A stretch of DNA of 64,000 nucleotides from an uncultured Eubacteriales bacterium. Its GTDB lineage: Bacteria; Bacillota; Clostridia; Oscillospirales; UBA644. Position 1 is the stretch's first letter. Each line of letters begins with the position of its first letter. Shown here in pieces: positions 5,710 to 45,004 of this stretch. The stretch spans positions 156,780 to 220,779 of the forward strand of contig CAKSBH010000002.1 in assembly GCA_934438175.1 (NCBI GenBank), written 5' to 3'. The position numbers and the translations under genes were made by a program. The notes beneath the pieces were generated by a model. It made no database searches, was not told where the DNA came from, and saw only the letters and a program-made list of their open reading frames with translations.

Positions 5710-6627
5710 ATGAATCAGTATCTGGATGTTGCACCGGAGGTCGCGGAAGCGCTCCGGCAGAATCGACCGGTGGTGGCGTTGGAATCCACCATCATTTCGC
5801 ACGGAATGCCGTATCCGCAGAATGTGCAGACGGCGCTGACTGTGGAGAAGACCATCCGGGAAAACGGAGCGGTTCCCGCAACCATCGCCGTGATCGGCGG
5901 TCGGCTCAAGGCGGGTTGCTCGGCGGAAGAAATCGAATATCTGGGAAAACAGGGACAGGCGGTTACCAAGGCATCCCGCCGGGATCTGCCGGTTCTTGTT
6001 GCCCGGAAGGCGGACGGTGCCACAACCGTGACGACAACGATGATGATTGCACATATGGCGGGCATTGACGTCTTTGCTACGGGCGGCATCGGCGGCGTTC
6101 ACCGCGGTGCGGAAACGACCATGGACATTTCCGCAGACCTGGAAGAGCTCGCCATGACTCCGGTTATGGTAATCTGCGCCGGGGCGAAATCCATTCTGGA
6201 TCTGGGGCTGACGCTGGAATACCTGGAAACAAAGGGGGTTCCGGTCATCGGTTACGGAACGGAGGAATTGCCTGCTTTCTATACGCGCAGAAGCGGGTTT
6301 AAGGTGGATTACCGCATCGACACGCCGGAGGATCTGGCGGCGGCGTTTTCCGCACAGCGCAATATGGGTCTGCGGGGCGGTATGCTGGTGACCAACCCCA
6401 TTCCGGAGCCCTACTCGATGGATCCCGATGTCATCAACCGGGCAATCGACGAGGCCGTGGCGGAAGCCCGTGCAAAGGGAATCCACGGCAAAGCGACCAC
6501 GCCGTTTTTGCTGGCGAAAATCAAGGATCTGACCGGCGGCGACAGCCTGGATGCGAACATTCAGCTGGTGCTGAACAATGCGCGGCTTGCGGCAAAAACC
6601 GCTGCGGCACTGTGTGCGAATCATTGA
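5710..6627 (+). CDS. psuG: pseudouridine-5'-phosphate glycosidase
   Basis: 305 aa. N-terminal VVALESTIISHGMPYPQN and overall PsuG/YeiN-like sequence. Confidence 0.92.
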   Translation: MNQYLDVAPEVAEALRQNRPVVALESTIISHGMPYPQNVQTALTVEKTIRENGAVPATIAVIGGRLKAGCSAEEIEYLGKQGQAVTKASRRDLPVLVARKADGATTVTTTMMIAHMAGIDVFATGGIGGVHRGAETTMDISADLEELAMTPVMVICAGAKSILDLGLTLEYLETKGVPVIGYGTEELPAFYTRRSGFKVDYRIDTPEDLAAAFSAQRNMGLRGGMLVTNPIPEPYSMDPDVINRAIDEAVAEARAKGIHGKATTPFLLAKIKDLTGGDSLDANIQLVLNNARLAAKTAAALCANH

Positions 6628-24719: not shown

Positions 24720-25289
24720 TTATTCAAAGTAAAGCTCGTGGATTCTCTTTTTCGCTTCACGGATCCGGCGGCTGAAGACGCAGGTGAAGATGATGTCGCA
24801 GATTCCGTCGATAATCAGCGAAATTCCGGCGAACATCATAACCGTGTCAAAGGTGTCGAACATCACCAGGATGCCCAGCGCAACCGTGAGTACGGAAAGG
24901 AGAAGCATAAAGCCCCAGCCCTTGATGTGCGCACGGGCACAGTCGATGCTGTCTACCAGAGAGGTGCTGCCGTCGATGACAATGAACAGACCGAAAATAA
25001 CGGTCAGCAGTTCTTTGACCATGGAGGGATTGATCAGGCAGAAAGCGCCGGAAAGCAGAAGCGCAATGCCGATGATCAGGGAATGCGCACTGAAGGCAAA
25101 GCCGTAAAGAATGAAGGTTACGACCGCAACGACCCCGGCGCAAAGCAACGTGATTCCGGAAACCGTGCAGAGAACATCCGCCGATTCTTTCGGAAGAACA
25201 AGGAACAGGACGCCGATGGCAATGGCGAGAACGGCAATGAGGATTCCGCTCCATTTCATTTTTGTAATGGCTTTTTTGATTTGACTCAT
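24720..25289 (-). CDS. HdeD-family (DUF308) membrane protein
   Basis: 189 aa. Six TM segments with the repeated DUF308 pattern. GGAAGGA SD. Confidence 0.8.
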   Translation of the reverse strand: MSQIKKAITKMKWSGILIAVLAIAIGVLFLVLPKESADVLCTVSGITLLCAGVVAVVTFILYGFAFSAHSLIIGIALLLSGAFCLINPSMVKELLTVIFGLFIVIDGSTSLVDSIDCARAHIKGWGFMLLLSVLTVALGILVMFDTFDTVMMFAGISLIIDGICDIIFTCVFSRRIREAKKRIHELYFE

Positions 25290-25316: not shown

Positions 25317-25943
25317 TTATCTTTTCTCCGTGTTACACGAATGAAAATTCGAAGAGGATGTCTGGGAAAGGCGCTGGGTCGCGCCCTGAATCTGGTCCGA
25401 CAGCGCCGTGTGAAGAAAACGAACCAATTCTTCCGGCGAACGGTCGATTTCTCCCCGCAGCCAGCTTTCCGTCAGGGCTCCGACCGCGAGCACGCAGAAC
25501 CTTGTGGCAATCCGCAAATCTTCCCGGCTTCCGGCAAGCGGACCGATTTCCGCACAGATCTGCCGGATGGTGTTGGAAACCATGTTGTAGATGTCTTCTT
25601 CAAAAAAATGACGGAGACGTCCGCGCTCCACCGAAATCAGCGCCATGTAGCAGAATTCCCGGTTTTCGTCCAGATACCGGAACAGCTGAAGAAGCCCGTC
25701 CTTACGGACAAGCCCGGTCTGTGCGTCGTACAGAAGCGGAAGCGCTTCCTGCTCAAACGTCCAGCGCAGCAGGGCATAGATATCGTCAAAGTGATAATAG
25801 AAGTTCTGACGGCGGATTCCGCAACGGTCGGTGATGTCCCGGATTGCGATCCGGTCCAGCGGCTTTTGCTGCATCAGCGCCTTCAGCGCGCACGACATCT
25901 TTTTTTTGGTCTGTTCCGAAGAAGAATAAGTCTGTTTCTGCAC
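25317..25943 (-). CDS. TetR/AcrR-family transcriptional regulator (DhaS-like C-terminal domain)
   Basis: GTG start 25943, 9 nt after GGAGG. HTH IAIRDITDRCGIRRQNFYYHFDD. The track start at 26033 has no SD. Confidence 0.8.
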   Translation of the reverse strand: MQKQTYSSSEQTKKKMSCALKALMQQKPLDRIAIRDITDRCGIRRQNFYYHFDDIYALLRWTFEQEALPLLYDAQTGLVRKDGLLQLFRYLDENREFCYMALISVERGRLRHFFEEDIYNMVSNTIRQICAEIGPLAGSREDLRIATRFCVLAVGALTESWLRGEIDRSPEELVRFLHTALSDQIQGATQRLSQTSSSNFHSCNTEKR

Positions 25944-26068
25944 GGAATCTTTCCTCCTTCGCGACAAAGCCCTGTTTTCTCGTCTTTTTCTGTTTTCAGT
26001 ATAGCACATTTTTTCAGACTTATCACGGGTCAAATCAAATAAAATGTCATATTTTATGGGGATTTTTC

Positions 26069-27646
26069 TTATTTTCCGCTTGCACCGTAGTTGGACAGCA
26101 CGCGGGCGGAGGGGTCATTTACGTCGCAGCCGCGCCAGGTGCGGTTCGGCATCCAGAAGTCCGGAATCATCTGCGACTGCCCGGGATAGTATTTTTCAAA
26201 GATCTCACGGTACAGCAGAGATTCTTTGGTGAAGGGAACTGCGTGCGCGTATTCACGGCGGCGTGTTTCGAATTCCGCATCGGTGTAGCGGCTTTCGGCG
26301 TATTCCTTGAGATCGTCCACCATGGAATGACCGACGGCGTCGGAGAATGCCGCTTTTTCCCGGTACAGGATTTCGTGCGGCAGATAGTCGCCCTCAAAAG
26401 CGTGACGAAGCAGATATTTTCCGATTCCGTAGGTGTTTTGCTTTTTCTTCGGATCGACCGAAAGAACGTATTGTACGAAATCCAGATCGCCGAACGGAAC
26501 CCGTGCCTCCAGGGATTGAGAGGAGATGCACCGGTCGGCACGCAGGACATCGTATTCATGCAGTTCCCGGATCCTTTTTTCGGATTCCTTTTGGAATTCC
26601 TCGGCGGACGGGGCAAAATCGGTGTATTTATAGCCGAACAGTTCGTCCGAGATTTCGCCGGTGAGCAGCACGCGGATGTCGGTATGGCGGTGAATCCAGC
26701 GGCAGAGCAGATACATTCCCATGGATGCGCGCACGGTTGTGATGTCAAACGTGCCCAGCTGCCGGATGACCTCTTCCAGAGAGTCCAGAACTTCCTGCCG
26801 GGTCATGGTCACCTCGGTGTGATCGCTGCCGATGTAATCCGCCACCTGACGGGCATATTTCAGGTCAATGGCATCGGTGTCCATGCCGATGGCAAAGGTC
26901 CGCAGGGGCTTTTGCTCTTTTTTTGCGGCAATGGCACAGACCAGGGAAGAATCCAGCCCCCCGGACAGGAGGAATCCGACCTTGGCATCGGAAACAAGGC
27001 GTTTCTCCACGCCCGCCGTCAGTTTTTCACGGATGTTCCGGCATACGGTTTCCACGCTGTCTTCGCACACGTTCTGCACGTTTGTGATATCGCGGTAGCA
27101 GACGAATTTTCCGTCCTTCCAGTAATGTCCGGGCGGGAACGGGAGAATGGTTCCGCAGAGTCCGACCAGGTTTTTGGGTTCACTGGCAAAAACGATCACG
27201 CCGCGGCGGTCATAGCCGTAGTACAGCGGACGGATGCCGATGGGGTCCCGCGCGGCAAGGTATCTGCCGGTTGCTCCGTCGTACAGGATCATCGCGAATT
27301 CCGCGTCCAGCATGCCGAACATGTTTTCGCCGTATTTGCGGTACAGCGGCAAAAGGATCTCACAGTCCGAGCCGCTGCGGAACGTGTACTCCGTCTGCAG
27401 TTCCTGTTTCAGTTTTTCATAACCGTAGATTTCTCCGTTGCAGACCGCAAAGCTTCCGTCCAGCTCAAACGGCTGCATTCCGGCGTCGGTCAAGCCCATG
27501 ATTGCCAGGCGGTGAAAGCCCAGAAGTCCTTTGCCGGTATCGAGAATCCGGCTTTTGTCCGGTCCCCGCGAGACGGTGGCGGCAAAGCCCTCTTCAAAGG
27601 ATGCGAGGTCGGCGCCGGCGCCGCAGTAGCCCATAATGGAACACAT
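26069..27646 (-). CDS. asnB: asparagine synthase (glutamine-hydrolysing)
   Basis: 525 aa. Ntn nucleophile Cys2 (MCSIMGY) and PP-loop SGGLDSS. Confidence 0.92.
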   Translation of the reverse strand: MCSIMGYCGAGADLASFEEGFAATVSRGPDKSRILDTGKGLLGFHRLAIMGLTDAGMQPFELDGSFAVCNGEIYGYEKLKQELQTEYTFRSGSDCEILLPLYRKYGENMFGMLDAEFAMILYDGATGRYLAARDPIGIRPLYYGYDRRGVIVFASEPKNLVGLCGTILPFPPGHYWKDGKFVCYRDITNVQNVCEDSVETVCRNIREKLTAGVEKRLVSDAKVGFLLSGGLDSSLVCAIAAKKEQKPLRTFAIGMDTDAIDLKYARQVADYIGSDHTEVTMTRQEVLDSLEEVIRQLGTFDITTVRASMGMYLLCRWIHRHTDIRVLLTGEISDELFGYKYTDFAPSAEEFQKESEKRIRELHEYDVLRADRCISSQSLEARVPFGDLDFVQYVLSVDPKKKQNTYGIGKYLLRHAFEGDYLPHEILYREKAAFSDAVGHSMVDDLKEYAESRYTDAEFETRRREYAHAVPFTKESLLYREIFEKYYPGQSQMIPDFWMPNRTWRGCDVNDPSARVLSNYGASGK

Positions 27647-27670: not shown

Positions 27671-27835
27671 TTAATCCCATGCGGAGGTATCGGCTCCGTA
27701 CGGGGAGGGATATTCCGACGTGTTTTCGATCCGGAGCGGCTGGGACGGGTCGGTGACCATACGCATGGGATGGCGGGGCACATCGTAGTGAAACGGATAT
27801 GTGGTGCGGGTGGTTTGCTCGGTTTTTGTTTTCAT
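27671..27835 (-). CDS. unannotated small ORF, 54 aa, between glnN and asnB
   Basis: Hand translation: MKTKTEQTTRTTYPFHYDVPRHPMRMVTDPSQPLRIENTSEYPSPYGADTSAWD. AAAGGAG SD 8 nt upstream, starting 3 nt after the glnN stop. GC-rich third positions like neighbouring genes. Below the 60-aa cutoff of the ORF track. Confidence 0.55.
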   Translation of the reverse strand: MKTKTEQTTRTTYPFHYDVPRHPMRMVTDPSQPLRIENTSEYPSPYGADTSAWD

Positions 27836-27853: not shown

Positions 27854-29950
<2,097 letters not shown>

Positions 29951-29967
29951 ACCGAAATCCTCCTTAC

Positions 29968-30008
29968 AAAATAAAAAAGGCAATGCGTCCTGCGGGACGT
30001 CATTGCCT
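29968..30008 (-). terminator. leader terminator T2 (glnN operon)
   Basis: RNA AGGCAAUGaCGUCC-CGCA-GGACGCAUUGCCU followed by UUUUUUAUUUU. Lies between the promoter and the glnN SD. Confidence 0.8.
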
Positions 30009-30064
30009 CGGTTTTCATAAAAAAAGGCGTCTGAGAGCCAAAACTCAAAGACGCCATTGCCTTT
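29993..30064 (-). promoter_or_regulatory. two ANTAR-type hexaloop hairpins (H1, H2), candidate antiterminator elements
   Basis: H1 AAAGGC[AAUGGC]GUCUUU (30064..30047). H2 CGaGGC[AAUGAC]GUCcCG (30010..29993). Loops have A1 and G4. Each competes with the 5' arm of T1 or T2. Confidence 0.6.
30019..30055 (-). terminator. leader terminator T1 (glnN operon)
   Basis: RNA GGCGUCU..GAG-UUUUGG-CUC..AGACGCC followed by U7. Confidence 0.75.
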
Positions 30065-30073
30065 ATGAGTGCT

Positions 30074-30102
30074 ATTATACAGGATGGAAACGGATTTGTC
30101 AA
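30074..30102 (-). promoter_or_regulatory. sigma-A promoter of glnN-sORF-asnB
   Basis: Minus strand TTGACA (30102..30097), 17-nt spacer, TATAAT (30079..30074). Confidence 0.7.
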
Positions 30103-30156
30103 GGGCTCTTCCGCAATTTTTTTGTTGCAAAAAAAGGATTTCCTTTTTCTTTTTTC

Positions 30157-30186
30157 TTGACAAGCGCGGGGAGATTGTGTTATAAT
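30157..30186 (+). promoter_or_regulatory. sigma-A promoter of the glutamate synthase-glnA-ANTAR operon
   Basis: TTGACA (30157-30162), 18-nt spacer, TATAAT (30181-30186). Confidence 0.65.
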
Positions 30187-30196
30187 GCTTGCCATA

Positions 30197-30214
30197 ATGA
30201 GCAAAGACGTTCAT
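30197..30214 (+). promoter_or_regulatory. ANTAR-type hexaloop hairpin H3
   Basis: AUGAGC[AAAGAC]GUUCAU. 6-bp stem, loop with A1 and G4. Overlaps the 5' arm of T3. Confidence 0.6.
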
Positions 30215-30253
30215 TCCGACGGGTTTTTTCCTGTTTGAATGGGCGTCTTTTTC
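30203..30253 (+). terminator. leader terminator T3
   Basis: AAAGACGUUCAUUC (30203-30216) pairs over 14 positions with GAAUGGGCGUCUUU (30237-30250), followed by UUUUUCUAUU. Confidence 0.8.
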
Positions 30254-30282: not shown

Positions 30283-31374
30283 ATGAAATGGGAAGGCGAA
30301 ATTCGTATCCCCTCCGGATGTGCGGTTGCGGCGGTGATCTCCCGGGACGGACGGCGGATGACGGGGGAGACGGTGATGCGGGGAATGTTGCCCATGCACG
30401 ACCGCTCCAATGGATTGGGCGGCGGCTTTGCGGCATACGGAATCTATCCGGAGTATCGGGATTTTTATGCGCTGCATCTCTTTTTTACCGACCGGGAAGC
30501 GCGGCATACCTGTGAAGAACTTCTGAAAGACCGGTTTGAAATTGTGAAGGATGAGCGGATTCCAATCTGCCGTATTCCGGAAATTACGGACGTTCCGTTG
30601 ATCCGCCGGTATTTTGTGGCGCCGCTGGCCTCCGTGCTGATGCGGCTTCAGTTGGACGAGAAGGAATATGTGGTGCGGACGGTGACGGAGATTAACACGA
30701 AGATCCGGGGGGCGTATGTGTTTTCCAGCGGGAAGAATATGGGAACCTTCAAGGCGGTGGGCTTTCCGGAGGATGTGGGAAGGTTTTACCGGCTGGAGGA
30801 ATATGCGGGATATCTCTGGACGGCGCACGGGCGGTATCCCACCAATACGCCGGGCTGGTGGGGCGGAGCCCATCCGTTTTCGTTGCTGGACACCTCGGTG
30901 GTTCACAACGGTGAGATTTCTTCTTACGACGCCAACCGCCGCTGTATGGAGATGTTCGGCTATTCCTGTACGCTGCAGACCGACACGGAGGTTATTGCTT
31001 ATATTGCCGATTACCTTCTGCGCCGGCAGGGGTTGACGCTTCGGGAGATGGCATCGGTCATTGCAGCGCCGTTCTGGAGTACCATCCGCACCCGTCCTCC
31101 GAAGGAGGCGGAGGAACTGTGCTATCTGCGGCAGATGTTTCCCGGTCTTCTGATTACCGGTCCGTTTTCGGTCATCTTCGGATTTACCGGCGGGCTGATG
31201 GCACTGAACGACCGGCTGAAGCTGCGTTCGATGGTAACGGCGGAAAAGGGTGATCTTGTATATTTTGCCAGTGAAGAGGCCGCGATTCGGGCAATGGAGC
31301 CGGCGGCGGAAAATCTGTATGCCCCGATGGGCGGTGAACCGGTTGTGGTTCGGGTAAAGGAGGGGTGCTTCTGA
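30283..31374 (+). CDS. class-II glutamine amidotransferase (glutamate synthase N-terminal domain homologue, stand-alone)
   Basis: ATG 30283 ([18 protein letters not shown]...). Gn_AT_II-type sequence ([18 protein letters not shown]). First gene of a split glutamate synthase set. Confidence 0.8.
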
Positions 31375-32879
31375 TGGAGCGTTCGTTTTTGCTTCCGGAA
31401 TTCGACGTGATACGGAATCCGGAGCGATGTGTGAACTGCCGGGTCTGTGAGCGGCAATGCTCGCACGGTGTCCATGTGTTTGACCCGAAAACAAAGACCA
31501 TGGTCAGTGACGAGGCGCGCTGTGTGGACTGCCAGCGCTGTGCGGTGTATTGTCCGACACGGGCTCTGAAGATTGTGCGGAACGGCGCTGCTCTGCGCCC
31601 AAACGCCAACTGGAGCGGTGCAACGGTGCAGGAAATCTACCGGCAGGCAGCCAGCGGAGGTGTGTTGCTTTCTTCCATGGGAAATCCGCAACCTCTTCCC
31701 GGATATTGGGAACGGATGCTGATCAACTCCTCACAGGTGACCAACCCGCCGATCGACCCCTTGCGGGAACCGATGGAAACGAAGGTGTTTCTGGGCAGTA
31801 AGCCGGCTTCGGTCTGCCGCGGTGAGGACGGGCGGCTGAAGACGGAGCTGCCGCCGCGGCTTGCGCTTTCCATGCCGGTGATGTTTTCCGCCATGAGCTA
31901 TGGATCGGTCAGTTATCGTGTTCATGCGTGTCTTGCCCGCGCGGCAAGACGGCTTGGAACCTTCTACAATACCGGGGAGGGCGGACTGCATGAGGATTTC
32001 TTCCCTTACGGGGATTGTACGGTGGTACAGGTGGCTTCCGGGCGGTTCGGCGTTCATGCCGGATATCTCCGTGCGGGTGCGGCGGTCGAGATCAAAATGG
32101 GGCAGGGTGCCAAGCCGGGAATCGGCGGACATCTGCCGGGAACAAAGATTGTGGGGGACGTTTCCCGGACGCGGATGATTCCGGAGGGCGCCGATGCCAT
32201 TTCTCCGGCACCGCATCACGATATCTATTCCATTGAGGATCTGCGCCAGCTGGTGTATTCCATCAAGGAAGCCACGCAGTATCGCAAGCCGGTTCTGGTC
32301 AAGGTCGCAGCGGTTCACAACATCGCCGCCATCGGTTCGGGCATTGCGCGGAGCGGGGCTGACATTCTTGTGATTGACGGCTTCCGGGGCGGAACGGGAG
32401 CGGCACCGACCCGGATCCGGGATCATGTGGGAATTCCGGTGGAGCTGGCACTTGCCGCCGTGGATACCCGTTTGCGGGAGGAAGGAATCCGGGAAAGAAT
32501 CTCTCTTGTGGCGGGAGGAAGCATTCGGTCTTCCGCCGATGTGGTGAAGGCCATCGCGCTCGGTGCCGATTGCTGCTATGTGGCAACGGCAGCGCTGCTG
32601 GCTCTCGGCTGTCATCTGTGCCGGAATTGCTCCGACGGGCAGTGTGCGTGGGGAATTGCCACCCAGCGGCCGGAACTGGTCGACCGCCTGGATATTGAAG
32701 AGGGAGCGGAGCGGTTGGTGAATCTGATGACCGCATGGCGGCATGAAATCAAGGAAATGATGGGCGGAATGGGCATCAATTCCATTGAGGCACTGCGGGG
32801 AAACCGGCGGATGCTGCGCGGCGTGGGCATGACGGAAAAGGAACTGGAGATTCTCGGAATTGCCCATGCCGGCGAGTAG
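31374..32879 (+). CDS. glutamate synthase FMN-binding domain protein fused to 2x[4Fe-4S] ferredoxin domain
   Basis: ATG 31374 overlaps the upstream stop; AAGGAGG lies 11 nt upstream. CVNCRVCERQC and CVDCQRCAVYCP clusters. GltB central-domain motif GQGAKPGIGGHLPG. Confidence 0.88.
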   Translation: MERSFLLPEFDVIRNPERCVNCRVCERQCSHGVHVFDPKTKTMVSDEARCVDCQRCAVYCPTRALKIVRNGAALRPNANWSGATVQEIYRQAASGGVLLSSMGNPQPLPGYWERMLINSSQVTNPPIDPLREPMETKVFLGSKPASVCRGEDGRLKTELPPRLALSMPVMFSAMSYGSVSYRVHACLARAARRLGTFYNTGEGGLHEDFFPYGDCTVVQVASGRFGVHAGYLRAGAAVEIKMGQGAKPGIGGHLPGTKIVGDVSRTRMIPEGADAISPAPHHDIYSIEDLRQLVYSIKEATQYRKPVLVKVAAVHNIAAIGSGIARSGADILVIDGFRGGTGAAPTRIRDHVGIPVELALAAVDTRLREEGIRERISLVAGGSIRSSADVVKAIALGADCCYVATAALLALGCHLCRNCSDGQCAWGIATQRPELVDRLDIEEGAERLVNLMTAWRHEIKEMMGGMGINSIEALRGNRRMLRGVGMTEKELEILGIAHAGE

Positions 32880-32981: not shown

Positions 32982-33704
32982 ATGTCGTGGATTGACGCAA
33001 GCGGAATGGACTTTTCCGCTTTGAACGAAGCAATCCGGAATGCCGGAAACAACTGCCGGATCCGCAACTGTCTGGGGCAACGGTTTCTTGCCGCAGGGAA
33101 GGAATCCGGGTCTGTACAGATTGAAGGAATTCCGGGGAATGCGCTCGGCGCTTATCTGGAAGGCGCGGACCTGACGGTATACGGCAATGCGCAGGATGCG
33201 GTGGGAGACACCATGAACGCCGGCTCGATTACGGTGTACGGAAGCGTCGGGGATGCCGTCGGTTATGCCATGCGCGGCGGCGAGATCCTGATTCGGGACA
33301 ATGCCGGATATCGTGCGGGCATTCACATGAAGGAATACCGCGGGAAGAAACCGGTTCTCGTCATCGGAGGAAGAACAGGGAGTTTTCTCGGCGAATATCA
33401 GGCAGGGGGGCTGATTCTGGTTCTTGCCCTGCACCGGGACGGACGTCCCTCCGTAGGCAATTTTCCGGGAACGGGGATGCATGGCGGAAAAATGATGCTG
33501 CGCGGAGACGTGTCCGGGATCCGTTTTCCGGAACAGACCGTCCGCCGGGAGGCGACGGCGGAGGATTTGGCGGAGGCAGAGCCGTATCTGCGGCGGTATG
33601 CGGAGCGGTGCGGTGCGGATGCGGAGTTTCTGCTTCGTTCTTCCTATACTGTGGTCACGCCGGGCGGAGCCAATCCGTATCGGCAGATGTATGTATCAAA
33701 TTAA
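32982..33704 (+). CDS. GXGXG-motif protein (glutamate synthase alpha-subunit C-terminal domain homologue)
   Basis: 240 aa. Repeated G-x-G beta-helix motif (YGNAQDAVGDTMNAGSITVYGSVGDAVGYAMRGGEILIRDNAGYRAG). No SD in front of the ATG. Confidence 0.85.
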   Translation: MSWIDASGMDFSALNEAIRNAGNNCRIRNCLGQRFLAAGKESGSVQIEGIPGNALGAYLEGADLTVYGNAQDAVGDTMNAGSITVYGSVGDAVGYAMRGGEILIRDNAGYRAGIHMKEYRGKKPVLVIGGRTGSFLGEYQAGGLILVLALHRDGRPSVGNFPGTGMHGGKMMLRGDVSGIRFPEQTVRREATAEDLAEAEPYLRRYAERCGADAEFLLRSSYTVVTPGGANPYRQMYVSN

Positions 33705-33723: not shown

Positions 33724-34941
33724 ATGCGATATTCAAAAGAAGAAATCCGGCAGTATGTGGCGGAGGAGGACGTCAAGTTTATCCGCATGGCGTTCTGCGA
33801 TGTATACGGCAGACCGAAAAATATCTCCGTGATGCCGGAAGAGCTGGAGCGTGCCTTCTCCTACGGCATTGCCATTGATGCGTCCGCCATTGCGGGATTC
33901 GGCGGAGAGATTCACTCGGACCTGCTTCTTCATCCGGATCCCTCGTCCCTGTCGCTTCTTCCGTGGAGACCGGAGCACGGGCGTGTGGTGCGGATGTTCT
34001 GCCGTGTGTCGTATCCCGACGGAACGCCGATGGAAGCCGATGCGCGCACGCTGCTTTGCCGTGCCGTTGCGGAGGCGGAGAAGGAGGGGCTTTCGTTTGC
34101 GTTCGGTTCGGAGATGGAATTTTATCTGTTTTGCCGTGACGAGAACGGCGAACCTACCCGGATTCCGTACGATCGTGCCGGCTATATGGACATGGCACCG
34201 GAGGACAAGGGGGAAAACGTGCGCCGGGAAATCTGCCTGACGCTGGAGCAGATGGGAATCCGTCCGGAGAGCTCGCATCACGAGGAGGGCCCGGGACAGA
34301 ACGAGATTGATTTCCGGTATTCCGACCCGCTGGAGGCGGCGGATCATGCCGTGACGTTCCGCTCGGCGGTGCATACGATTGCGGCACGCAACGGGCTTTA
34401 TGCGGATTTTTCGCCGAAGCCGCTTCCGCATCAGCCCGGAAACGGGATGCACATCAACCTGTCGGTCCGGTCCGCGGACGGACGGGAGGTCATGCCGCAG
34501 GTTCTGGCGGGCATTCTGAAGCATATCCGGGAAATGACCGTATTTCTGAACACAACCGAAGATTCGTACCGCCGGTTCGGAAGCAACAAGGCGCCGGGCT
34601 ATGTGTCCTGGTCGAGCGAAAACCGTTCGCAGCTGATCCGCATTCCGGCAGCCGAGGGGGAATACCGCCGCGCGGAGCTGCGTTCTCCCGACCCGCTGTG
34701 CAATCCGTATCTGGCGTTTGCCCTGCTGATCTATGCCGGGTTGGACGGCGTCCGGAGCGGAGCGGAACTTCCGCCCGCAGTGGATCTGAATCTGTATACG
34801 GCACCGGAATCGGTGCGGAAGATGTATCCGGCGCTTCCCCGGACGTTGGCGGAGGCACGGAAAACGGCGGCGGAAAGTGATTTTATCGGCTCGGTTCTGC
34901 CGCAGGCCATTCTCCGTCCGTATCTGGAAACGGAAAACTGA
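33724..34941 (+). CDS. glnA: glutamine synthetase type I (short, 405 aa)
   Basis: ATG 33724 (MRYSKEEIRQYVAEEDVKFIRMAFCDVYG...). GS beta-grasp and catalytic domain motifs (GSEMEFYLF, NGMHINLS). Confidence 0.88.
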   Translation: MRYSKEEIRQYVAEEDVKFIRMAFCDVYGRPKNISVMPEELERAFSYGIAIDASAIAGFGGEIHSDLLLHPDPSSLSLLPWRPEHGRVVRMFCRVSYPDGTPMEADARTLLCRAVAEAEKEGLSFAFGSEMEFYLFCRDENGEPTRIPYDRAGYMDMAPEDKGENVRREICLTLEQMGIRPESSHHEEGPGQNEIDFRYSDPLEAADHAVTFRSAVHTIAARNGLYADFSPKPLPHQPGNGMHINLSVRSADGREVMPQVLAGILKHIREMTVFLNTTEDSYRRFGSNKAPGYVSWSSENRSQLIRIPAAEGEYRRAELRSPDPLCNPYLAFALLIYAGLDGVRSGAELPPAVDLNLYTAPESVRKMYPALPRTLAEARKTAAESDFIGSVLPQAILRPYLETEN

Positions 34942-34977: not shown

Positions 34978-38632
<3,655 letters not shown>

Positions 38633-38648
38633 AGGACGGTAAAACACT

Positions 38649-39917
38649 ATGCTTACTGCGATTGTCGGTATCAACTGGGGCGATGAGGGAAAGGGCCGTA
38701 TGGTCGACCTTCTTTCTTCGGATTATGACATCATTTGCCGCTACCAGGGCGGAAACAATGCAGGCCACACGGTGGTCAACGAGAGGGGAAAATTCGTTCT
38801 GAATCTTCTTCCCTCCGGAATTCTGCGCGAGACCACGGTCAACGTCATGGGCAACGGCATGGTCATTGACATTGAGCATCTGGTAAACGAAAGCAAGAAA
38901 CTGACGGATCAGGGCATCCGCATCACGCCGGAAAATCTCAAGATCAGCGACCGCGCCATTGTCTGCCTGCCGTATCACCGGATGCAGGACATTATGGAGG
39001 AGGAGCGTCTTGCCGATAAGAAATACGGCTCTACCCGCCGCGGCATTGCTCCCGTTTATGCCGATAAATATATGAAAAAGGGCATCCGTACCGCCGATCT
39101 TCTTCATACGGATTCTTTGTATGAGAAGGTGCATGACATCGTGGAATGGAAAAACATCACCGTTACCGGTTACGGCCATGAGGCGCTTCGTGCAGACGAT
39201 GTGATGGACTGGCTGAAAACGTACGGCGCTCAGGTTGCTCCGTTTATTACGGATGTTTCCGAATATCTGTATCGTGCCGTGGATGAGGGCAAGAACATCA
39301 TGTTCGAGGCACAGCTCGGCGCTTTGCGTGATATCGATTTCGGCATCTATCCTTACACGTCCTCTTCGCAGACCCTGGCGGCATTCGGCCCCATCGGTGC
39401 CGGAATCCCCGGTGTGAAGCTGAATAAGACCATCGGAATCATGAAGGCCTATTCCACCTGTGTGGGCGAGGGTCCGTTCACGGCGGAAATGTTCGGGGAA
39501 GAAGCCGAGAAGCTGCGCGCCGCCGGCGGTGAGTACGGTGCCGCAACCGGAAGACCCCGCCGTGTGGGTCCGTTTGATGTGCCCGCGTCCCGTTACGGTG
39601 TGCGTGTGCAGGGAGCGGATACCATTGCCTTGACCAAACTGGACGTTCTCTCTTATCTGGATAAGATTCCGGTCTGCACGGCATACGAGGTGGACGGCGA
39701 GAAGACCACGGTGTTCCCCACGGGCGACCGTCTGAACCGCGCCAAACCGGTGATTGAGTATGTGGACGGTTTCGGAGATGTGTCCTCGTGCCGTCGTTAT
39801 GAAGATCTGCCCGATGCCGCCAAAGCGTATGTACGGTATCTGGAAGAGGCAGTCGGCTGCCGGATTGAATATGTTTCGGTCGGTGCCGGAAGAGAAGAAT
39901 ATATTCATATCGGCTGA
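38649..39917 (+). CDS. purA: adenylosuccinate synthase
   Basis: 422 aa. GDEGKGRMVD and GGNNAGHT motifs. Confidence 0.95.
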   Translation: MLTAIVGINWGDEGKGRMVDLLSSDYDIICRYQGGNNAGHTVVNERGKFVLNLLPSGILRETTVNVMGNGMVIDIEHLVNESKKLTDQGIRITPENLKISDRAIVCLPYHRMQDIMEEERLADKKYGSTRRGIAPVYADKYMKKGIRTADLLHTDSLYEKVHDIVEWKNITVTGYGHEALRADDVMDWLKTYGAQVAPFITDVSEYLYRAVDEGKNIMFEAQLGALRDIDFGIYPYTSSSQTLAAFGPIGAGIPGVKLNKTIGIMKAYSTCVGEGPFTAEMFGEEAEKLRAAGGEYGAATGRPRRVGPFDVPASRYGVRVQGADTIALTKLDVLSYLDKIPVCTAYEVDGEKTTVFPTGDRLNRAKPVIEYVDGFGDVSSCRRYEDLPDAAKAYVRYLEEAVGCRIEYVSVGAGREEYIHIG

Positions 39918-39963: not shown

Positions 39964-40001
39964 GGATCTCCCCCGTCCGTCGGACGGGGGAGATCCTTTT
40001 T
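39964..40001 (+). terminator. intrinsic terminator after purA
   Basis: GGATCTCCCCCGTC (39964-39977) / GACGGGGGAGATCC (39983-39996), then T5. Confidence 0.85.
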
Positions 40002-44917: not shown

Positions 44918-45004
44918 TGGTGCGGACGGGGGGACTTGAACCCCCACGGGAAAACTCCCACTACCCCCTCAAAGTAGCGTGTCTGCCAATTCCACCACGA
45001 CCGC
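44918..45004 (-). tRNA. tRNA-Leu, anticodon GAG
   Basis: 87 nt: GCGGTCGTGGTGGAATTGGCAGACACGCTACTTTGAGGGGGTAGTGGGAGTTTTCCCGTGGGGGTTCAAGTCCCCCCGTCCGCACCA. Cloverleaf folded by hand: anticodon loop UUGAGGG, long variable arm, GTTCAAGT T-loop, encoded CCA. One U5-U68 mismatch in the acceptor stem. Confidence 0.9.

Follow-up and report, generated by a model that had tools for sequence, protein, structure and literature searches.

Few RNA-binding output domains of bacteria are commoner than ANTAR, and the targets of ANTAR regulators are still sought with a dual-hairpin model derived from three systems. Here we describe putative ANTAR targets with a single hairpin per terminator in a 64,000-nucleotide stretch of an uncultured Eubacteriales bacterium of the Oscillospirales (contig CAKSBH010000002.1, positions 156,780 to 220,779; the whole stretch is hereafter the window). 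They lie in the divergent leaders of two nitrogen-assimilation operons, one starting with glnN, which encodes a type III glutamine synthetase (GSIII), and the other with the gltB genes of a split glutamate synthase (GOGAT). Together the two leaders hold three units, each of one hexaloop hairpin and one intrinsic terminator.

The textbook ANTAR target is a pair of hexaloop hairpins in tandem, joined in eut by a linker of 5–12 nt (Ramesh et al. 2012). The hexaloop of ANTAR-target RNA is defined by A at position 1 (A1) and G at position 4 (G4). The seed alignment of Ramesh et al. 2012 includes the nasF hairpins CGCGCC[AAUGGC]GGCGCG and GGAU[AAAGGC]GUCC (loops in square brackets), the eutG hairpins GUGUAC[AAUGGC]GUAUAC and GAAGC[AAAGAC]GCUUC, and the eutA hairpin UUAAGC[AAAGGC]GCUUAA. 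In the EutV-RNA structure the ANTAR dimer contacts one hexaloop at a time, and the minimal site was redefined as a single hexaloop, with single-hexaloop sites expected only in settings free of a kinetic race with the polymerase, e.g. in sequestration by a small RNA (Walshe et al. 2022, PMC8934654). NitR of Clostridium saccharobutylicum, whose gene comes after glnA, is an ANTAR protein cited as inducing glutamine synthetase (GS) and GOGAT by antitermination under nitrogen limitation (PMC6316151; PMC4676874). Among the predictions tabulated by Ramesh et al. 2012 (Table S2) are sites that precede genes for glutamine synthetase, ANTAR proteins and glutamate synthase in Desulforudis, Carboxydothermus, Alkaliphilus, C. 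lentocellum and others. ANTAR control of GS/GOGAT genes in Firmicutes is an idea already known.

The sites described here share with those of EutV/eut (Enterococcus, Listeria), NasR/nasF and AmiR/amiE the A1/G4 hexaloop closed by a C-G pair, the loops AAUGGC, AAAGGC and AAAGAC, the overlap of the hairpin with the 5' arm of an intrinsic terminator, a nearby ANTAR gene and targets in nitrogen metabolism. Those sites have two hairpins 5–12 nt apart (P1 and P2), whereas here each terminator has one hairpin, placed at about +2 to +5 without a P1, and complete hairpin-terminator units are repeated in series. NitR of C. saccharobutylicum and C. acetobutylicum, as far as the papers citing it describe it, is alike in that its gene lies directly 3' of glnA, clustered with glutamate synthase genes, and in the proposed induction of GS/GOGAT by antitermination under nitrogen limitation; set against those descriptions, the present locus differs in its split archaeal-type GOGAT, its divergent glnN-asnB operon and the inclusion of pyrG-purB-purA. 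Walshe et al. 2022 found one hexaloop contacted per dimer and predicted that single-hexaloop sites are possible, but the single hexaloops here face terminators and would compete directly with transcription. ANTAR/NitR antitermination is therefore the known part and the architecture the new one; this is not a new kind of regulation.

The intergenic region between the start codons of glnN (29950, minus strand) and of the first glutamate-synthase gene (30283, plus strand) is 332 bp long, and a simple promoter scan identified in it two perfect promoters arranged back to back (Table 1). An earlier note on this DNA, made from the sequence alone, had described these promoters, the three hairpins H1–H3, the terminators T1–T3 and the start of H1 and H3 close to the transcription start, and all of these were borne out: both promoters match at 12/12 consensus positions, the hairpins read as described at their positions, and T1–T3 are the minimum-free-energy structures of both leaders (z = -6.35 and -4.01 against shuffled sequences). 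Each terminator is a G+C-rich stem-loop with a U-tract directly behind it, on the transcribed strand and between promoter and start codon. The 5' arm of T1 consists of the 3' half of the H1 loop and the H1 3' strand, and that of T3 of the H3 loop, the H3 3' strand and the next few bases. The earlier description of the terminator 5' arm as hairpin loop plus 3' strand fits these two; the arm of T2 also takes in most of the H2 5' strand. Compared with the strong terminators the hairpins are weak, so that termination would be the default and a hairpin would need outside help to compete.

To locate units elsewhere, a covariance model (R1) was built on the terminator fold of the aligned units; it replaced an ad hoc terminator filter that was too lax, returning 14 "units" in the window and missing H2. 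In the window, R1 found only the three units at significant scores. For the 12-mer RGCAAWGRCGTY, chance would give 0.21 occurrences in the window; there are four, three of them in the 332-bp intergenic region. The fourth exact match (AGCAAAGACGTC, 6067..6078, minus strand) corrects the earlier note, whose non-exhaustive scan by eye had not come upon the core elsewhere; it lies in coding-looking DNA without hairpin, terminator or unit-model match and is probably a chance match. The only other weak R1 match in the window, at 19.5 bits, is a terminator at 24713-24666 (minus strand) without a hexaloop hairpin. R1 also gives antisense echoes of T1 and T2 at 29974-30066 (plus strand; 24.7 and 14.3 bits); they stem from the quasi-palindromic nature of the terminator arms (AAAGGCGUCUUU versus AAAGACGCCUUU), and a similar echo is seen in many loci.

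In order to examine conservation, GlnN relatives were sought in one genome per species, which gave 80 loci (L001–L080) at 73–82% identity with 8-kb flanks, all from Clostridia or close relatives (Oscillospirales, Lachnospiraceae, Christensenellales and one Allobaculum). Nearly all glnN leaders have aaagGCAAnGGCGTcttt followed by a terminator, the typical unit of this class being AAAGGC[AANGGC]GUCUUU plus terminator. A pattern search found at least one unit in 75 of the 80 glnN loci (39 with one, 35 with two and 1 with three), and the covariance model added three more loci, so that at least 78 of 80 have a unit. On the other side, 47 of 50 gltB-operon leaders carry RUGRNC[ANNGNN]GUUCRY, typically AUGAGC[AAAGGC]GUUCAU; behind each comes a terminator at least as strong as -12 kcal/mol, and there is always one unit only. 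Second units with the CGAGGC stem recur in L001, L002 and L003, and the mismatch of H2 is restored to A-U in L001 and L003.

The loops of H1 and H3 and of the family consensus are identical, letter for letter, to those of validated ANTAR hairpins, including the C-G closing pair that the validated sites likewise have. H1 (AAUGGC) has the loop of the nasF, eutG and eutP P1 hairpins, and A1 and G4, the positions defined by Ramesh et al. 2012, are also present in H2 (AAUGAC) and H3 (AAAGAC). The window encodes an ANTAR protein nearby (34978-35565), and in all 38 loci with a complete flank an ANTAR orthologue lies directly 3' of glnA. The earlier reading of these hairpins as ANTAR-type hexaloops is thus in agreement with both loop identity and gene linkage. 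The closest solved relatives of the ANTAR protein are Rv1626 (best, 1e-13) and EutV, and the protein family to which it belongs comprises more than 7,400 clusters at an E-value below 1e-10. Its N-terminal Response_reg match (16.4 bits) is below the cut-off of 30.2. The position of the phospho-acceptor Asp, as aligned to Rv1626, is His in the window protein and N in 34, S in 4 and H in 1 of 39 orthologues, never D, and the acidic DD pocket of the receiver is replaced by V-S. The receiver of response-regulator ANTAR proteins of the EutV, Rv1626 and NasT type is therefore not present; judged from these residues the N-terminal domain is a pseudo-receiver, as in AmiR. In the absence of the phospho-acceptor, a kinase is an unlikely controller, and the regulator probably responds to a ligand or a partner protein in the way of AmiR and NasT; for the partner, our guesses would be GS or a PII protein.

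An atypical regulator of this kind leaves some room for the explanation that the units are real attenuators whose hairpin is stabilised by another RNA-binding protein or a small molecule and not by the linked ANTAR protein, all the more as ANTAR binding to the units is putative and the units fail the dual-hairpin definition to which all validated ANTAR sites conform. We regard this as unlikely: the loops and closing pair are those of validated ANTAR hairpins, the ANTAR gene is linked in every complete locus, and no known metabolite aptamer is small enough to fit in a hairpin of 18 nt. No Rfam family matched the glnN/gltB intergenic region at the gathering threshold, and only chance-level matches were obtained there at E-values up to 10.

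Recognition by the linked ANTAR protein would have to work from a single hairpin. The tandem arrangement was not found in this family: of 125 model-defined units, 124 have a hexaloop hairpin at the expected position, and only 21 have a second A1/G4 hexaloop hairpin 10–40 nt away, fewer than shuffled flanks do (28.9 +/- 4.6). A near-consensus promoter precedes 78 of 79 promoter-proximal units and ends 7–12 nt before the first base of the stem, which places the start of the hairpin at about +2 to +5 of the transcript, so that no upstream hairpin is possible in the RNA; 38 gltB leaders show the same 5'-terminal placement. A search with an ANTAR-target covariance model, which the earlier note had proposed, was carried out with a dual-hairpin model (R2) built from 7 validated eut sites, K. 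oxytoca nasF being left out since its P1 was misaligned by MAFFT. R2 gave only two weak half-matches in the window (13.0 and 10.7 bits) with one real hairpin aligned in each: H3 was taken as P2 with a false P1 made of untranscribed promoter DNA, and H1 as P1 with a false P2. The apical hairpin of the terminator was considered as a "P2" and rejected, as its loops vary in length and sequence; a direct repeat AAAGGC-AAAGGC as a single-strand recognition element was rejected as well, as it is absent from the gltB class.

About half of the glnN leaders do have two hexaloop hairpins, and the ANTAR dimer has two RNA-binding domains (PMC8934654), so that H1 and H2 could be imagined to act jointly as P1 and P2 of a disguised dual-hairpin site, T1 being incidental. 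This is very unlikely. There is one hairpin only in 39 of the 75 glnN leaders and in essentially all gltB leaders. In two-hairpin leaders the hexaloops are a median of 73 nt apart (range 39–194) against 5–12 nt in eut, where a linker extension of 20 nt abolishes EutV action, and each hairpin has its own covarying terminator and U-tract. Moreover, H1 must act before H2 has been transcribed. By these comparisons, the combination of each terminator with a single hairpin, and the serial arrangement of complete units, characterise the family as a whole and are no chance feature of the window; the earlier note had described this departure for the three units. Some of the short matches in Table S2 of Ramesh et al. 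2012 may likewise be single-hairpin family members that were read as dual hairpins. No description of single-hexaloop clostridial attenuators was found in the literature, although the primary NitR paper (Stutz et al. 2007), known through citations only, may note a similar hairpin.

Conservation and covariation of the hairpins in orthologous leaders had been set beforehand as a test, and both were found. Base pairs were counted in an alignment of 64 units, with 500 shuffles and slid helices as controls. The hairpin helix is paired in 94% of cells and has 12 double-change cells in 4 of its 6 pairs, which none of the 500 shuffles reached; the slid-helix controls fall to 36–62% paired. The terminator helix is 92% paired with 101 double-change cells. 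It uses alignment columns 9–23, which are the hairpin loop and the hairpin 3' strand, and since loop position 3 pairs with the terminator 3' arm, the terminator consumes the hairpin loop. The predicted folds and this covariation agree that each hairpin and the terminator which it overlaps exclude one another, as had been claimed for the three units of the window.

Among 137 unique hairpins the loop reads A1 (137), A2 (137), N, G4 (137), R, C. The closing pair is C-G in 137/137, as imposed by the extraction, and the second pair is G.U in 127, A-U in 8 and G-C in 2. The next three are at least 95% paired and vary: G-C 96 and A-U 39 at pair 3, A-U 91 and G-C 40 at pair 4, A-U 87 and U-A 38 at pair 5. 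From the glnN to the gltB class, pairs 3–5 are swapped in compensatory fashion, with no change in the loop or in the C-G and G.U pairs that close it. This swap under a constant loop and top supports a hairpin in which sequence would matter for the loop and top and shape for the lower stem. Mutagenesis of EutV sites gave the same pattern, with loop and top read by sequence and the lower stem by shape. It is most improbable that a dimeric repressor uses the quasi-palindrome AAAGGCGTCTTT as its DNA operator, or that the terminators are constitutive without an alternative fold: the 12-mer is nearly self-complementary, the covariance model also matches the antisense strand and first units lie just 3' of the promoter, but second units lie 40–190 nt from the promoter and are followed by U-tracts, the hairpin 5' strand, although outside the palindrome, changes in concert with the 3' strand and is not the same in the glnN class as in the gltB class, the apical stems show the free covariation of RNA helices, and constitutive terminators of -17 to -27 kcal/mol ahead of essential assimilation genes would silence those genes.

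We therefore favour ANTAR-dependent antitermination at single hexaloops, which would operate as follows. By default, the nascent leader would fold into a strong intrinsic terminator and RNA polymerase would stop before the first gene, with two such stops in series before glnN-asnB and one before gltB1-gltB2-gltB3-glnA-ANTAR-pyrG-purB-purA. Alternatively, the first ~20 nt of the leader or unit would form a weak hairpin of 6 bp, in which a C-G pair followed by a G.U pair closes the hexaloop A-A-N-G-R-C; as the hairpin loop and 3' strand are the lower 5' arm of the terminator, both structures cannot coexist. Active ANTAR protein, presumably under nitrogen limitation, would bind the single hexaloop as it emerges from the polymerase, and the bound hairpin would stay closed, withhold the terminator 5' arm and permit read-through. 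Two units in series would multiply the on/off ratio for glnN, and the regulator gene, being inside its own T3-controlled operon, would be subject to positive feedback.

We consider it probable that an ANTAR-clamped single 5'-terminal hexaloop relieves default termination in this way. The anatomy of the units, their conservation, the covariation of both structures, the identity of the loops, the linkage to the ANTAR gene and the set of genes under the units are all observed here. Several points weigh against the proposal. That the ANTAR protein binds, that termination takes place, which way control runs and what the signal is are all matters that we infer. In vivo as well as in vitro, EutV acts only with both hairpins present and joined by a short linker (PMC8934654), and its action is abolished when the linker is shortened or lengthened, including by 20 nt; by that requirement, co-transcriptional action of a single hairpin is unproven. 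The extraction pattern imposed C-A..G..G on the hairpins and inflates the 100% figures for A1/G4 and for the closing pair; the count of 124 of 125 model-defined units is less biased, yet R1 was itself seeded from those pattern matches. A single ancestral event, or a few, may account for much of the covariation between the two classes. Linkage of the motif to ANTAR genes was judged within the 8-kb flanks, and the presence of glutamate dehydrogenase (GDH) under the same control as GS/GOGAT is physiologically unexpected. On the wider proposition, that a single hexaloop at the 5' end is enough for co-transcriptional antitermination and, with a kinase-independent ANTAR protein of the NitR type with a pseudo-receiver, forms the master post-initiation switch of a broad nitrogen regulon in gut and rumen Clostridia, we are evenly divided.

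Two other groups of attenuators resemble the proposed mechanism in part. In the ribonucleic antiterminator (RAT) sites of BglG/SacY, termination is also the default and one protein-stabilised hairpin covers the terminator 5' arm, but the protein has the CAT/PRD fold and not an ANTAR domain, the RAT is 29–30 nt long with internal loops in place of a hexaloop, and control is exerted by the sugar phosphotransferase system. Tandem riboswitches and tandem T-boxes likewise have complete sensor-terminator units in series in one leader, with a sharper and deeper response expected, whereas the sensor here would be a putative protein-binding hairpin and not an aptamer for a metabolite or tRNA. Leader-peptide attenuation was considered as well, but the only AUG of the glnN leader has no Shine-Dalgarno sequence. 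The glnN Shine-Dalgarno sequence comes 3 nt after the end of the T2 U-tract (29951-29985, minus strand). The minimum-free-energy fold pairs the run CCUUUUUUAU with AAGGAGG, and this predicted pairing could add a translational layer after read-through.

Units were also searched for before other genes, in the 80 loci and in a metagenome scan with a 15-base pattern, for which many chance matches are expected; true units by the model were found in only about 35 of the 80 metagenome loci kept. In the 80 glnN loci and these ~35 contigs, units also precede genes for GDH, an ammonium transporter (Amt), a Na+/glutamate symporter, aminotransferases of class I/II, III and IV, SAICAR synthetase (purC) and CTP synthase (pyrG). 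Together, the genes under units form a candidate nitrogen regulon of GSIII, GOGAT, type I glutamine synthetase (GSI), GDH, Amt, symporter, aminotransferases, purC and pyrG. On a Lachnospiraceae contig (L019, 514-1100, plus strand), a unit is followed by a 153-aa open reading frame (ORF) that by eye is similar to IS200/IS605 transposases; it may be an insertion that parted the unit from its original gene.

The genes of the two operons and the elements between them are listed in Table 1. The order of the split glutamate-synthase genes is kept in 38–50 loci. For glnA, the longest ORF (447 aa, start 33598) overlaps the GXGXG gene, and Pfam coverage is the same with the start at 33724, which is the more likely one. 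The ANTAR gene was identified correctly in the earlier note but does not end the plus operon: pyrG follows after 11 nt, pyrG and purB overlap, and purA begins 16 nt after purB. From these short gaps and the position of the first strong terminator, T3 appears to govern eight genes, and pyrG, purB and purA, which serve nucleotide synthesis and consume glutamine or aspartate, appear to be co-transcribed with the GOGAT, GS and ANTAR genes. On the minus strand, there is no promoter or unit between glnN and the downstream asnB, and asnB lies 3' of glnN in 52 of the 80 related loci. A 54-aa ORF between them (27671-27835, minus strand), with the good Shine-Dalgarno sequence AAGGAG, had been counted as a member of this operon; tblastn against the 80 related loci, Pfam and NCBIfam all returned nothing for it, and it is likely not a conserved gene.

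Table 1 Promoters, hairpins, terminators and genes of the divergent nitrogen-assimilation locus (positions in the window).
Feature	Coordinates	Strand	Sequence, prediction or match
glnN-operon promoter	30102..30074	-	TTGACA-17-TATAAT, 12/12 consensus positions (simple promoter scan)
gltB-glnA-ANTAR operon promoter	30157..30186	+	TTGACA-18-TATAAT, TG extension, 12/12 consensus positions
H1, putative 5'-terminal antiterminator hairpin	30064..30047	-	AAAGGC[AAUGGC]GUCUUU; predicted -3.5 kcal/mol
H2, putative second antiterminator hairpin	30010..29993	-	CGAGGC[AAUGAC]GUCCCG, one A-C mismatch; predicted -2.2 kcal/mol
H3, putative 5'-terminal antiterminator hairpin	30197..30214	+	AUGAGC[AAAGAC]GUUCAU; predicted -4.3 kcal/mol
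T1, intrinsic terminator	30055..30019	-	GGCGUCU...AGACGCC then U7; predicted -17.4 kcal/mol; R1 54.7 bits
T2, second intrinsic terminator	30009..29968	-	U6; predicted -21.2 kcal/mol; R1 28 bits
T3, long intrinsic terminator	30203..30253	+	U5; predicted -26.8 kcal/mol; R1 28 bits
glnN, type III glutamine synthetase, first gene after T1 and T2	27854..29950	-	Pfam GSIII_N 2.8e-79, Gln-synt_C-ter, Gln-synt_C
asnB, glutamine-dependent asparagine synthase	26069..27646	-	Pfam Asn_synthase, GATase_7
Split glutamate synthase, GATase_2	30283-31374	+	Pfam GATase_2
Split glutamate synthase, FMN/Fe-S domain	31365-32879	+	Pfam Glu_synthase
Split glutamate synthase, GXGXG	32982-33704	+	Pfam GXGXG
glnA, type I glutamine synthetase, 405 aa	33724..34941	+	Pfam GSI; start from gene calls on identical contigs
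ANTAR regulator, pseudo-receiver N-terminal domain	34978..35565	+	Pfam ANTAR 65.1 bits, cut-off 27.3
pyrG	35577-37202	+	Pfam
purB	37199-38632	+	Pfam
purA	38649-39917	+	Pfam
Strong terminator closing the plus operon	39964..40001	+	GGATCTCCCCCGTCCG-T-CGGACGGGGGAGATCC, then T5; first strong one past the ANTAR gene

Midway between the divergent -35 boxes there is an A/T inverted repeat (TTTTTTTG-TTG-CAAAAAAA, 30117-30135), and many related loci have similar T-run/A-run tracts ahead of the -35 box; the repeat may be a pair of UP elements or the site of a DNA-binding regulator. Further 3' of asnB, all on the minus strand, are genes for a TetR-family regulator (25317-26033) and a DUF308 membrane protein (24720-25289), followed by the clean terminator at 24713-24666. 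A tRNA gene (44921-45004, minus strand) is the sole Rfam match at gathering score in the window.

To our knowledge, the classical nitrogen regulators of Proteobacteria and Bacillus (NtrC, GlnR and TnrA) have not been shown to apply in these gut anaerobes, in which nitrogen control is largely unstudied. For Oscillospirales, Lachnospirales and related gut anaerobes, the comparisons made here define from sequence alone a candidate nitrogen regulon and its regulator, whose pseudo-receiver domain points to a sensing partner. Together with roughly 170 relatives examined, the locus provides a conserved natural collection of candidate single-hexaloop attenuators, in which it can be tested directly whether one hexaloop is fast enough to beat a terminator, the point left by the EutV-RNA structure of 2022; the family is conserved widely enough to merit such experiments. 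More than 7,000 sequence clusters of NitR-type regulators were found. If the proposed mechanism is true, the need for two hairpins would be peculiar to EutV, NasR and AmiR and would not be inherent in the ANTAR domain, and searches with dual-hairpin models would have missed most ANTAR targets in Firmicutes.

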